Shown here piece by piece: positions 23,914-27,864 of a stretch of DNA of 33,973 bases (its first letter is position 1; each line of letters begins with the position of its first letter). The translations under genes were made by a program, and so were the position numbers. The notes beneath the pieces are model-generated. The model did not search any database. It saw only the letters and a list, made by a program, of their open reading frames with translations, and was not told the DNA's origin. This DNA comes from Armatimonadota bacterium (lineage in GTDB: Bacteria; Armatimonadota; Armatimonadia; Armatimonadales; Armatimonadaceae). Where the stretch lies: the NCBI GenBank assembly GCA_043754515.1, contig JAYUUO010000178.1, forward strand, positions 1 to 33,973, in the 5' to 3' direction.

Positions 23914-24035
23914 CGGCGCGGCATTAGCCGCACATGGGGATGAAGTATGTTAGCGGGATGGGTGAAGCATATACCGGCTCGGCAGAAACGGGGTCGTTGG
24001 TGCTGGGGCTTTGGGGAGCGGTCGGGAGGATCAAC

Positions 24036-24719
24036 ATGGATGATCTGAAAGGGGCGTTTGAAGAACTCATCAGTACGATGCGGCGATCCGGCTTCGCCTA
24101 CCCTGAAACGCTTCGGGAAGGGTTGTCGGAAGCGGAGGTTCTGGACCAAACGTCTGAACTACCATTCGCTCTACCTGACGAGGTTGTATGACTATACGCT
24201 TTATGCAATAGAACAGACGTTGATATTCATAGCAAATTACTGCCCGTCGGTTTTTTTGGCGGGCACCGAATGCTCACGTTATCCGAGTCCCTATATTGGT
24301 ATCATTTTTTCGCTGAAATCGCTGTTGACGATGATGCACTTCGGGTTACCTGGTTTCCGCTGTTCACGGATACGTATCGTTTCATGTTTGTTATGACGGA
24401 AGAGAGTGACGGTCGTAATGCCCCCTTGATTGATATTGAAGGAGAGGACAGAAGTGGAGTACTGATCGTCTCAGGAATCAAGGAGCTTTTCATATTCTGT
24501 ACCGGGCTGATAAACGCGGGTGCATTTCACCCCGATCTGAATGGTAAGGAGCGTGGGAGGGGGGCGATGTTGGTGAATCAAGACATTTACAAAAAGGTTG
24601 TCCCACTGTACGACGTTGACGTTGCAATATATTGGGACGGTAACAAATGGGTTAGCCAGCAGGCCGTTACACTCGATTCGCTCCCTGTGAGTAGCCAGTC
24701 CATAGACACCCACTTCTAG
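24036..24719 (+). pseudogene. SMI1/KNR4 (SUKH) family immunity-like protein interrupted by an in-frame TGA (24189-24191)
   Basis: GGAGGA RBS + ATG24036. Reads LREGLSEAEV......PFALPDEVV*LYALCN...FFGGHRMLTLSES...WFPLF in one frame, the SUKH pattern. Visibly lower GC than neighbours. Confidence 0.72.
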
Positions 24720-24907
24720 GAACGAACGCATACAGCTTCTGCTCGGGGAAGCGGCGTGCCCCGGCTATTGCGCGATGTCCATATTCAGAGTATGATTTTC
24801 TAAGCCACCGATAAGCATGGCAGAGTCTTAGTCGTACTATAAAAGGCCCCGTCTCTGTGTCCGGCACATTCCTCACGCGGCACAGGCACCTCCCCGGAGA
24901 AGATCAC

Positions 24908-25795
24908 ATGGAACTGTTTCAACTGCGGTATTTCGCCGCCGCCGCCCGGCGCGAGAGTTTTAGCCGCGCCGCCGACGAATGCTCCGTCTCGCAGCCGAGC
25001 CTATCTCTACAAATCGCTAATCTGGAGAAGGAAGTCGGCACCCAACTTTTCAACCGGCAGGGCAGATCCGTTCGTCTCACCGACGCCGGGCGCACCCTCG
25101 CCGAGTATGCGGAACGGATTCTGCGCGAGGAGGAGGAAGCCCGCCGCGCCGTACGCGCCGTGGTCGGGCTGGAACGCGGGCGGCTTGCCATCTGGACGCT
25201 ACCGACGCCGGGACAAAACCTGCTCCCGAAGCACCTGGCGACGTTTCGGCTCGCGCACCCCAACATCGAAATCACGGTACATGAGTCCGTCCCGGCGCGA
25301 ACGGTAGGCGAGGCAGTGACGGCGGGGATCGCAGACATCGGGTTCGTTCACCTACCCATTCCCGTGCCGGATCTGGCGATGCGGCACCTGTTCACCGAAG
25401 AGTTAGCACTGGTTGTCCCGGCAAACCATCGGCTCGCCGCGCCGGACGCTCCCGCGCCCGGCCTGGCGGATCTCGCGGAGGAAGACTTCGTGTGGGTGCC
25501 GCAAGGGACGACGCCCGAACACCCGATCTACGCCGCGTGTCTCGCCGCCGGATTTACGCCCCGAATCGCGTGTGTATCCGGGTCGGCGACTGGCATGCAG
25601 AAGATGGTCGCGGCGGGTCTTGGTATCGCCTTGTTGCCCCGCCTCGCGTTGCTACCGCCCGACGGCGTGACGGTGGTCGAACTCGCCGCGCCGCGCCCGA
25701 CACGCACCATTGTCGCGATCTGGCGCGAACGTGACGGGCTAACCCACGCCGCGAGCGCATTCCTCAAAGAGGTGGTCAAGGGTCTGGCCCGTTAG
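24908..25795 (+). CDS. LysR family transcriptional regulator
   Basis: MELFQLRYF.A.A...SFSRAA....VSQPSLS.QI..LE.EVG..LF.R..R.V.LTDAG, with VAAGLGIALLP. GGAGA RBS. TACTAT at 24835-24840. Confidence 0.95.
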   Translation: MELFQLRYFAAAARRESFSRAADECSVSQPSLSLQIANLEKEVGTQLFNRQGRSVRLTDAGRTLAEYAERILREEEEARRAVRAVVGLERGRLAIWTLPTPGQNLLPKHLATFRLAHPNIEITVHESVPARTVGEAVTAGIADIGFVHLPIPVPDLAMRHLFTEELALVVPANHRLAAPDAPAPGLADLAEEDFVWVPQGTTPEHPIYAACLAAGFTPRIACVSGSATGMQKMVAAGLGIALLPRLALLPPDGVTVVELAAPRPTRTIVAIWRERDGLTHAASAFLKEVVKGLAR

Positions 25796-25833: not shown

Positions 25834-27036
25834 TCACGGTGCCATACGTAGTTTGACGGCCTGCGCCTCGAACTTGGGTTTGTACATCGGGCACTTGTAC
25901 GACTTCGAATAGTCTTTCGGGTTCTCGGCTTCCGCGATGAAAACCTTGGTGCCGATAATGCCGCACTTCTCGTAAGCGCGGTCGTAGTTGCCGCAGTCGT
26001 AGCAACGGCGCAGAATGGTCCAGCAGACCGAGCAGCGGAGCGAGCCGATCAGTTCCACCCGGCCGCAGAGCGGGCAGTGGATGTATACCTCGCGGAATCC
26101 GAAGTCTTTGTTCGCGAGCGACTCGCGCAGTTTCATATTGAAGCTTTCGAGTTCGCGGGCGAGTTCGGCAGTGGTGGCGAGCAACTGATTCATCTGCTCG
26201 GCAGCCAGAAACTCGCCGATACGGTCGTCGAGCATCTCGCCGAAGCCGGACGCGTTCTTTTCCAGTGTCTTGAGGTGCGTCTCGGCGGTGACGGCGCGGT
26301 ATGGGCGTTTACGCTCCTCGCGGGCACCGAGCGAGCGTAAAATCTGCTCCGTCACCGAGACCGGGACGCGTAGGAACGCCTCTTTGCGTTGCGGGAACTG
26401 CCGGATCGCCCCGACGATCTTGTCAAGATCGGAGACGTTTAGCTTCTCCTGCTTGACCTTCTGAGCAAGGCGAAGTTGCGCCTGGGCGTCGTCGTTCATC
26501 GCCAGCAAAACGCGGGCATGTCCCTCGGTGAAGGCACCTTCACCCGCGCCGGGACGCGCGATCAGTTCCTGCTGGATTGCGATGGGGAGTTCGAGCAGTT
26601 CCAGCCCGCGACGGATAGTGGTCTCGGAAAGGCCCAGCATCTTCGCGACGCGGTCGTAACTCATGAACTGGAGCAGGGCTTGCATCGCCCGCGCCCGCTC
26701 CACGGGGTTCATGTCCTCGCGTTGCAGGTTCTCTAGGAGCGAGTCGGCGGCGGCTTCCTCGTCCGTCAGGTTTTTGACGAGCACCGGGATCGTGGTTAAA
26801 CCAGCCATTTGCGAGGCGCGGAACCGCCGCTCCCCCATCACGATCTCGTACAGCCCGTCGTTACGCCCGACCATGGGCCGCACCACAATCGGTTGCAACA
26901 CCCCCCGTTCCCGGATGGACGCCGCTAGTTCGTCGAGCGAGTCCTGATAGAACGTGCGGCGCGGCTGAGACTCGTTCGTACGAATCTTATCGAGCGGCAT
27001 ATTTTGTGCGTTTGTGGCCTGCGCCGTAGTTGCCAT
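25834..27036 (-). CDS. ParB/Spo0J family protein with a C-terminal Cys-rich (8 Cys) domain
   Basis: QPRRTF, L.ELAASI...GVLQPIVVR, GERRFRA, ENLQREDMNP.E.A, HTH, EGHARVLL. Tail CPLC-x11-CSVC-x6-CYDC-x9-C-x23-C. ATG27036 after AAAGG (alternative GTG27069). Confidence 0.88.
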   Translation of the reverse strand: MATTAQATNAQNMPLDKIRTNESQPRRTFYQDSLDELAASIRERGVLQPIVVRPMVGRNDGLYEIVMGERRFRASQMAGLTTIPVLVKNLTDEEAAADSLLENLQREDMNPVERARAMQALLQFMSYDRVAKMLGLSETTIRRGLELLELPIAIQQELIARPGAGEGAFTEGHARVLLAMNDDAQAQLRLAQKVKQEKLNVSDLDKIVGAIRQFPQRKEAFLRVPVSVTEQILRSLGAREERKRPYRAVTAETHLKTLEKNASGFGEMLDDRIGEFLAAEQMNQLLATTAELARELESFNMKLRESLANKDFGFREVYIHCPLCGRVELIGSLRCSVCWTILRRCYDCGNYDRAYEKCGIIGTKVFIAEAENPKDYSKSYKCPMYKPKFEAQAVKLRMAP

Positions 27037-27114
27037 AATCACGTAACCTTTTTTACCCGCCGCCTTCACGCGCGGATGTACCCCGTATCCATTATGGCTT
27101 TTTGTCGCCAGATT

Positions 27115-27864
27115 TTAAGGCTTGGGCGGGATTTGCGCGAAACTTACCGCATCCGACGCCCCGAAGAGCGGCGTGAATATCTCAGACAGCCTCGTAAGGT
27201 ACCGGGCGACCATCGGAAGTCCGAGTGTCGGGCGTAATAATCCGAGTATTTCACGACCGAAAAGTATCAGATCGCGTGTGGACTTCTGGTTCGGGGTGCG
27301 GTCTTGCAGGTAAAAAAGTACCAGCGAGAGATGCGCGGCATAAAAAAGCGTGGTAATCTCGGCGGACTGATCTCGCTTCGGCGTGTCCGAGGCACCAACC
27401 ACTACCTGCGCGAACACCCCCCGAACCCGGTCTCTTATCTCGGCGGTCGCCCCCCCAAGCACCTGCGTCGGCGCGTCCGGCGACAGCCCCGCCCCGAAAA
27501 GCGCGGCGAGCGCATCCCGGTGCGGCGCGAGCCGCTCCAGGTCGGCGATCTCGATAGCGGCCCACCGGTGCGCGAGACTTGACTTCGGCAACCGGTCGGC
27601 CTCGTCTATAAGTTCCTGCGCAAGCCGGTCGTAAAGTGCCAGCACCATGTCCTCTTTACGGGCGAAGTAGCGGTAGGCAAGCCCCAGGGAACAGCCCGCC
27701 TCGGCGGCGATGTCGCGCATCGTCGCCCCGGCAAACCCCTGACGCGCGAAAAGCGCGAGGGCGGCCTCCAGTATCCGCTCCCGAGTACGCTCGCCCTTAC
27801 GGACTTTGCGTGCTTCGGTGTCATGCGCGTCAGCCTCTAATTCCTCGACGGTTAGATTTTCCAT
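27115..27864 (-). CDS. TetR/AcrR family transcriptional regulator
   Basis: TRERILEAALALF...GF..ATMRDIA.EAG.S.GLAYRYF..KE HTH. Confidence 0.93.
   Translation of the reverse strand: MENLTVEELEADAHDTEARKVRKGERTRERILEAALALFARQGFAGATMRDIAAEAGCSLGLAYRYFARKEDMVLALYDRLAQELIDEADRLPKSSLAHRWAAIEIADLERLAPHRDALAALFGAGLSPDAPTQVLGGATAEIRDRVRGVFAQVVVGASDTPKRDQSAEITTLFYAAHLSLVLFYLQDRTPNQKSTRDLILFGREILGLLRPTLGLPMVARYLTRLSEIFTPLFGASDAVSFAQIPPKP

Follow-up and report, generated by a model that had tools for sequence, protein, structure and literature searches.

A chromosomal ParB paralogue of Armatimonadota with an eight-cysteine domain and a sigma-28-type promoter motif common to pilM

A 33,973-nucleotide stretch of DNA from an Armatimonadota bacterium (hereafter referred to as the window) encodes a ParB paralogue in which an intact CTPase-fold domain and an altered helix-turn-helix (HTH) domain are followed by a helical segment and a domain with eight cysteines. 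The CTP motifs of the paralogue are invariant, a canonical parABS system is present elsewhere in the same genome, and the gene is preceded by a conserved promoter motif that is also found upstream of pilM. This putative sigma-28-type promoter, common to type IV pilus genes and missed by the first-pass annotation, is the best clue to function; co-regulation with pilus genes is distinct from a demonstrated pilus function. The family adds a putative chromosomal clamp that is conserved and has a third HTH specificity code; its predicted dimerisation module is new and its metal domain unclassified. The promoter evidence indicates when the protein is likely made. It also yields a sigma-28 promoter consensus and an outline of the regulon in a phylum that has been little studied, among it families in which no flagellin was found.

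No fusion of ParB to an eight-cysteine domain was found among the available entries of a ParB-fold survey (bioRxiv 10.1101/2025.10.10.680097; PMC12704722); in its six supplements the word zinc is absent and Armatimonadales appear once, in a count table. Listings of the openly accessible literature on Armatimonadota ParB, on ParB with sigma-28 or pili and on ParB with Fe-S contained no description of such a protein.

Table 1. Positions in the window of the paralogue gene, the parts of its product and the upstream motif
Feature	Position	Strand	Remarks
ParB paralogue ORF	25834..27036	minus	400 aa, no internal stops
ParB N-terminal CTPase-fold domain	26722..27009	minus	residues 10-105, invariant motifs
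HTH/DNA-binding domain	26404..26718	minus	residues 107-211; specificity positions E138, G144, E149, G172
Helical hairpin 247-310, predicted homodimer interface	26107..26298	minus	after low-confidence linker 240-246
First Cys half C321, C324, C335, C338	26023..26076	minus	predicted NZF/RanBP2-like zinc ribbon
Second Cys half C345, C348, C358, C382, Y385	25882..26004	minus	CX2CX9CX23C; weak HiPIP-like [4Fe-4S] likeness
Sigma-28-type promoter motif GCCTTAAA-N15-GCCATAAT	27091..27121	minus	ends 55 nt before ATG

The paralogue and its homologues

A Pfam search of the protein identified ParB_N (E 1e-33) and HTH_ParB (E 9e-17); no match was obtained beyond residue 211, and ParB_C is absent. The general TIGR00180 was the only NCBIfam model passed. 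The GERRFRA and ENLQR motifs and the recognition helix SETTIRRGLELL, named in the first-pass annotation, are all present in the translated reading frame. Its cysteine pattern was correct in the number of cysteines and in their spacing (2-10-2-6-2-9-23, nucleotides 26076-25891) except for the first gap, which is x10 and not x11. ParA families are absent from the window, and a genome-wide parS scan gave no match on its contig, in agreement with the reported lack of parA and canonical parS. The LysR and TetR regulators named as neighbours were found as well; they were rejected as a functional clue, the end of tetR being located upstream only in the three genomes of the organism's own genus. An Rfam search of the window gave no match. 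At 23934-24719 of the window, in a stretch of low GC content (0.52 at 24001-25000), there are two short same-strand reading frames without a Pfam match, perhaps one split gene.

Five ParB genes were found in the genome (six matches). A canonical parB coding for the ParA motif and a KSR helix lies behind parA on contig C222, and parS-like sites are present on contigs C222, C281, C282, C303, C304 and C14, C303 being the dnaA contig. The gene in the window is, as had been supposed, a non-canonical paralogue and not the only ParB of its genome. A second copy on contig C302 is 64% identical to it and has the same cysteine domain. The paralogue on contig C64 belongs to the same clade and has no cysteine domain, and the fifth ParB gene, on contig C99, is located among phage-like genes. 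The six-frame scan of the 5.1 Mb genome of the source organism detected the cysteine pattern in the window gene and in one paralogue only. The gene is scattered in position, its distance from dnaA varying between ~0.14 and 3.8 Mb among complete genomes, and linkage to the origin or terminus was rejected.

Several observations were made around these genes. The second copy (L013:7507-10524 on C302; also L067, L068, L070 and L084) is head-to-head with an extra ParA gene, downstream of which there is a gene for a small helical protein without a Pfam match, ribbon-helix-helix-like by eye; at L084 this unit is two genes away from the canonical parAB. A family of 210-330 aa proteins without a Pfam match follows the second copy in 12 loci (L068-L079) and has further members at L449 and, in the window's genome, at C197:24305-25120; some members have a sigma-28 motif of their own (L068, 15.4 bits; L449, 19.8 bits). 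The C64 paralogue (L015:206-1207) has the same HTH type, a low-complexity linker and a helical tail, and its gene is without the sigma-28 motif. For dnaA (C303:10789-12210 and f2 genomes) the profile matches are split within open frames of 545-966 aa, which may reflect an intein or an insertion.

All named homologues belong to Armatimonadota. Among 80 loci kept, 23 matched over the full length and the rest over the N-terminal half only. The last 100 residues matched in 137 of 401 Armatimonadota genomes. The strong matches are ParB fusions in eleven families (f1, f2, f6, f7, f13, f15, f19, f22, f26, f33 and f43); families f5 (27 genomes), f11 (47), f24 (13) and f27 (20) gave no match to these residues. 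The weaker matches retrieved were of two kinds: the domain alone, as a protein of ~75-80 aa whose gene is in most cases convergent with relA, and the domain at the N-terminus of GDPD enzymes. A profile search of 1.84 billion representatives yielded 78 matches, of which ~44 are the eight-cysteine domain in the same three architectures or as fragments, and the remainder are generic zinc-ribbon repeats. Small stand-alone cysteine-rich relatives, suspected in the first-pass annotation, occur in both sets of matches. All eight cysteines are invariant in 120-121 of 121 homologues, a count biased by the use of the C-terminal region in choosing them, and none is missing from any of the 69 rows when families are aligned with one another. 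Conservation of the cysteines, a condition of the first-pass reading, is supported.

Some of these loci have features of their own. In family f25 the stand-alone domain is convergent with relA/spoT; the loci L087-L093, L097 and L098, and L094, L096, L099 and L100, have stand-alone or GDPD-fused forms, the domain preceding the glycerophosphodiester phosphodiesterase in the latter. The proteins L080:5261-7576, P0126 and P0127 have an N-terminal extension of ~350 aa that consists of a helical part and a proline-rich linker and has no Pfam match.

In a quick tree of 65 rows, the 23 cysteine-bearing proteins and the C64 paralogue group in a single clade (SH-aLRT 99) that excludes ParB and Noc, with branching roughly by family. 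Inheritance is vertical and single-copy in most families. With canonical ParB/Spo0J (TIGR00180; 1vz0, 6sdk, 6t1f) the paralogue shares ~40% identity over the first 210 residues, the CTPase fold with GERRxRA and ENxQR, the HTH, a flexible linker and, by prediction, C-terminal dimerisation. It differs in the lack of the ParA motif, of a parA neighbour and of ParB_C, in the glutamate at the R173 position, in the extra cysteine domain and in its separate clade.

The cross-family alignment showed P25-R26, G68-E-R-R-x-R-A74 and E102-N103 to be invariant, with the CTP motifs present in 69 of 69 rows. According to the accessible part of the PNAS survey (PMC12704722), sequence is no reliable predictor of nucleotide choice in ParB folds, and 17 of 28 purified ParB folds bound no nucleotide. 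Both canonical Armatimonadota ParBs have the ParA-binding motif [LIF]G[KR]G[LIF], which none of the 23 cysteine-bearing proteins contains.

HTH specificity positions were mapped onto Caulobacter ParB. The quartet RTAG reads parS, QKKR reads NBS, and Caulobacter R173 is described as conserved in all ParBs, as far as the available part of that work goes (PMC7383237). In the paralogue the quartet is E138, G144 (mostly S among homologues), E149 and G172. The R173 position, E138 here, is occupied by Glu in 58 and by Asp in 7 of the 69 rows, and by Arg in none. Of six shared DNA contacts the paralogue retains three (G135, S137 and R175, the last in 65 of 69 rows). Conserved basic residues have newly appeared at R142 and R143 (Arg or Lys in 69/69), and with R175 they keep the face basic. 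At the same time acidic residues were gained at E138, E146 and E149, and DNA binding may therefore be weak or lost. A new DNA target, as first proposed, is plausible.

Footprinting for palindromes in 69 locus flanks revealed none common to more than four loci. The genome's top palindrome, CAAAAC-NN-GTTTTG, with 48 copies compared to 0.2 expected, was rejected as a binding site: it is part of a dispersed, species-specific repeat and occurs in one of five other genomes. Other top palindromes of the genome were rejected as belonging to hairpin repeats and a CRISPR array. The array has a 61-nt period (C143:37 onward and C138:55-116); the dispersed intergenic hairpin repeats (C33, C84, C112 and others) form two families, with 48 and 25 copies of their respective core palindromes.

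The upstream sigma-28-type motif

The regions upstream of the ParB-Cys genes share CCCTnnA-N15/16-(G/C)C(G/C)ATAAT, from which an Armatimonadota consensus CCCTnnA(G)-N15/16-(G/C)C(G/C)ATAAT was written. The motif scored above 14 bits in 41 of 67 upstream regions, compared to 0.6% of shuffles and none of 67 reverse strands (all in sample), and is conserved in most families. In the window its -35 box overlaps the stop codon of tetR. The window motif resembles the published sigma-28 consensus (-35 TAAA, -10 GCCGATAA; PMC8325347, in part). In the same part of that source, promoters of this class precede pilus and c-di-GMP genes in WhiG/FliA regulons, as for the type IV pili of Rubrobacter, and no ParB-like member of the Rubrobacter WhiG regulon is named.

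The motif is not uniform across the family. It is weak in f26 (0/2) and f43 (0/1) and was found in only one of 14 second copies. The stand-alone (11) and GDPD-fused (4) cysteine domains gave 0/15 above 12 bits. In f15 no sense strand exceeded 14 bits (0/10), and a strong site was detected on the opposite strand in all ten. At L049:7184-7399 and other f15 loci this strong motif faces away from the gene, toward a 71-aa reading frame with CxxC.

A genome-wide matrix scan was barely enriched (81 matches vs 70 above 14 bits, 8 vs 1 above 20 bits) and pointed to pilM. When a matrix trained on the ParB genes was applied to pilM in 30 genomes, a test out of sample, the motif was detected in all 18 genomes from carrier families (17/17 without the window's genome, which had prompted the test), in 1 of 12 others and on 4 of 30 reverse strands. 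A reciprocal matrix, built on pilM alone and seeded with the published consensus, exceeded 12 bits in 27 of 41 main-copy regions, 2 of 41 reverse strands and 1 of 18 dprA regions; the window's own site scored 10.5 bits with it. None of the six pilB/pilC homologues of the window's genome had a site above 12 bits directly upstream, and they may lie inside operons; a site before the C305 ATPase, seen in an earlier scan, was absent from this one.

A fixed pattern was then matched in 20 genomes and gave 198 matches, compared to 46 for the control. A downstream reading frame was called in 91 of the 120 loci retrieved, and 44 of these 91, chosen by eye, were scanned, in addition to BLAST clusters. 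The pattern precedes genes of flagellin (3), FlgM (4), PilB-type ATPases (3), PilM (3) and the window-type ParB (3), as well as those of PilC, CheW, MCP, FlhA, FlgF/G, HDOD, GGDEF, HD, anti-sigma and STAS proteins. Many other downstream genes are unrelated and may be chance. As expected of a general sigma-28 promoter, the pattern occurs also in genomes without the ParB-Cys gene.

The window's genome encodes a WhiG-like sigma factor (TIGR02479, 240 bits at a cut-off of 189.6). All 51 carriers have such a factor, compared to 42 of 150 other genomes (201 in all, in which kin are not independent), and carriers without flagellin keep it as well. Searches for flagellin were negative in the organism's own family (8/8 genomes) and in f7 (7/7), both of which keep the ParB-Cys gene. 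A flagellar role was rejected on this ground, and the regulon in these two families would so be a pilus one. In contigs from RNA runs two short pieces of the gene were covered, one from a diverged relative, from which neither expression nor a start site follows. Another sigma factor, SigB-like and with a C-terminal domain resembling a degenerate GGDEF by eye, was noticed in five genomes (L253, L220, L221, L223 and L228); in the window's genome the gene of this fusion (C10:10780-12180, L253) has a sigma-28 motif upstream.

Dimer module and cysteine domain

The AlphaFold2 model of the paralogue (mean pLDDT 87, pTM 0.56) has helices at 251-310 and an ordered cysteine domain. In a dimer prediction with two copies of residues 215-400, a value of 0.73 was obtained, compared to 0.00 for the best control, and the confident interface comprised the hairpin only. 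Of 30 solved pairs 20 attained the mark used, as did 1 of 23 single chains; these counts hold only roughly for the 215-400 job. Contact agreement in the dimer runs was at least 54% and pLDDT at least 69. The idea that the cysteine domain replaces the dimerisation domain was not borne out, as the helices before it are predicted to dimerise; the dimerisation function is probably kept, through this hairpin. With the interface so confined, the clamp ring (architecture after the accessible part of PMC10770331) would on this prediction be geometrically complete even in the absence of the cysteine domain.

When folded alone, the cysteine domain had a pLDDT of 86. No significant match to it was obtained when Pfam, NCBIfam and PDB were searched by sequence. 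A Foldseek check suggested at the outset was carried out and returned none at E 0.001, which does not imply a novel fold. A structure search gave Z of at least 2 for 12 of 48,161 chains, all far below Z 8. The first 29 residues overlay NZF/RanBP2 ribbons with an rmsd of 1.0-1.7 over 28-29 residues, but with Z of 2.1-2.6, and stand-alone forms had weak Zn_ribbon Pfam matches below cut-off. The first half probably binds Zn.

The second half aligned with the [4Fe-4S] subunits of two glycyl radical enzymes, HpdC (2y8n_B; Z 2.9, rmsd 2.3, 43 aligned, 30% identity) and BssB (4pkf_B; Z 2.4). Subunits of this type are HiPIP-like and use CX2CXnCXnC (PMC13450708 and PMC12358834, both in part), a motif that can bind a single Fe instead (PMC12358834, same part). 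The motif, which in HpdC and BssB ends in C-x2-aromatic as it does here, is present as C345-x2-C348-x9-C358-x23-C382. The context is different, however, the Z values are low, and hhalign against 13 HpdC sequences gave probabilities of only 5% and 8%. None of 150 cysteine-anchored shuffles had a higher global score against the HpdC N-half, but the first ligands are out of the expected register. We somewhat favor two Zn in the domain; an Fe-S cluster of the [4Fe-4S] type in its second half is possible, if doubtful. If such a cluster is bound, a CTP switch would be coupled to redox sensing, which was not found in the literature searched. A role of the domain as a metal or redox sensor is plausible. 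The far-reaching version, a first ParB-type CTP clamp with [4Fe-4S] and a zinc ribbon in which oxygen, redox state or iron would gate a sliding-clamp regulator of a sigma-28 piliation switch across the phylum, we consider quite unlikely.

Possible functions

ParB clamps have been repurposed in several systems: Noc acts in division, KorB and BisD in plasmid or ICE control and VirB in virulence. We tentatively propose, with confidence just short of even, that the paralogue is a CTP-gated clamp switched on with type IV pilus genes through a WhiG-like sigma-28 factor, and that it regulates genes or chromosome state in piliated cells. The WhiG-like factor would transcribe the ParB-Cys gene together with pilus genes. 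The dimer, held by the 247-310 helices, and the N-terminal gate would close a ring as in ParB, KorB and VirB. It would bind CTP, load at its own site, read by the E-S-E-G helix, then close, slide and act on transcription or chromosome state without ParA. The cysteine domain, with metal bound, would protrude at the base of this ring and act as an interaction module that contacts a partner, with Zn probably in the first half and Zn or [4Fe-4S] in the second, and may sense metal or redox state. KorB, VirB and BisD are CTP-clamp gene regulators, whose ParB-type architecture the paralogue likely reuses for the same purpose, and KorB was the top structural row (Z 15.5, rmsd 14.7, 194 aligned). In contrast to these three, which have no cysteine domain, the paralogue is chromosomal and vertically inherited, and no operator was found for it.

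The acidic substitutions in the recognition helix and the failure of palindrome searches to reveal a binding site would also fit a CTP switch without specific DNA binding, a PadC-like scaffold for pilus or polarity proteins that docks via the cysteine domain; NZF-like ribbons are interaction modules, and the promoter motif is common to pilM, pilB and pilC. We regard this as rather unlikely, since the HTH scaffold, R142, R143 and GHAR are strongly conserved across families, as fits a kept DNA or ligand surface, the ParA motif is absent, and no conserved linkage to pilus genes was seen among the loci compared.

A general nucleoid or cell-cycle factor resembling Noc, for which the sigma-28 promoter would mark a developmental stage unrelated to pili, is unlikely. 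Noc (TIGR04285) is of the same architecture class, an orphan chromosomal ParB duplicate without the ParA motif and with changed HTH specificity, and gave the paralogue its best NCBIfam score, 175 bits, though at a cut-off of 315. Vertical single-copy inheritance in most families and the anti-sigma, STAS and c-di-GMP genes of the regulon agree with such a factor. The paralogue, however, lies outside the Noc clade, has the quartet E-G/S-E-G instead of QKKR, and differs in its cysteine tail and sigma-28-type promoter motif, and the gene is missing from many families. Noc has an N-terminal membrane-binding helix; many homologues of the paralogue start ~10 residues before the ParB domain, and such short N-termini would probably leave no space for it.

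Type IV pili can take up DNA, and at 8 of 60 loci, which belong to three families, the gene is downstream of comEC. A role in competence or DNA uptake is nevertheless very unlikely, because the ParB-trained matrix at a threshold of 15 bits detected no site before comEA (0/18) or dprA (0/18), a result on which a competence regulon was rejected, a separate promoter motif precedes the ParB-Cys gene also where it follows comEC, and linkage to comEC is missing in the other families, the window's genome included. That the protein is the ParB of a second partition system with the extra ParA, next to which the second copy stands here as in 5 of 60 loci, is highly improbable, since the gene of that ParA is already followed by one for a small partner, the main copy never adjoins it, and the ParA motif and a fixed distance from dnaA are both lacking.

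Two genomes of genus g13 contain inserted DNA that is flanked on both sides by the 3' end of the gene (L102:5515-5706/8393-8585 and L104:5592-5715/7239-7362). At L102 a large serine recombinase gene and an HTH_17 gene lie beside the 3'-end copy. In both genomes the 3' end of the ParB-Cys gene resembles an integration site that is restored upon insertion.
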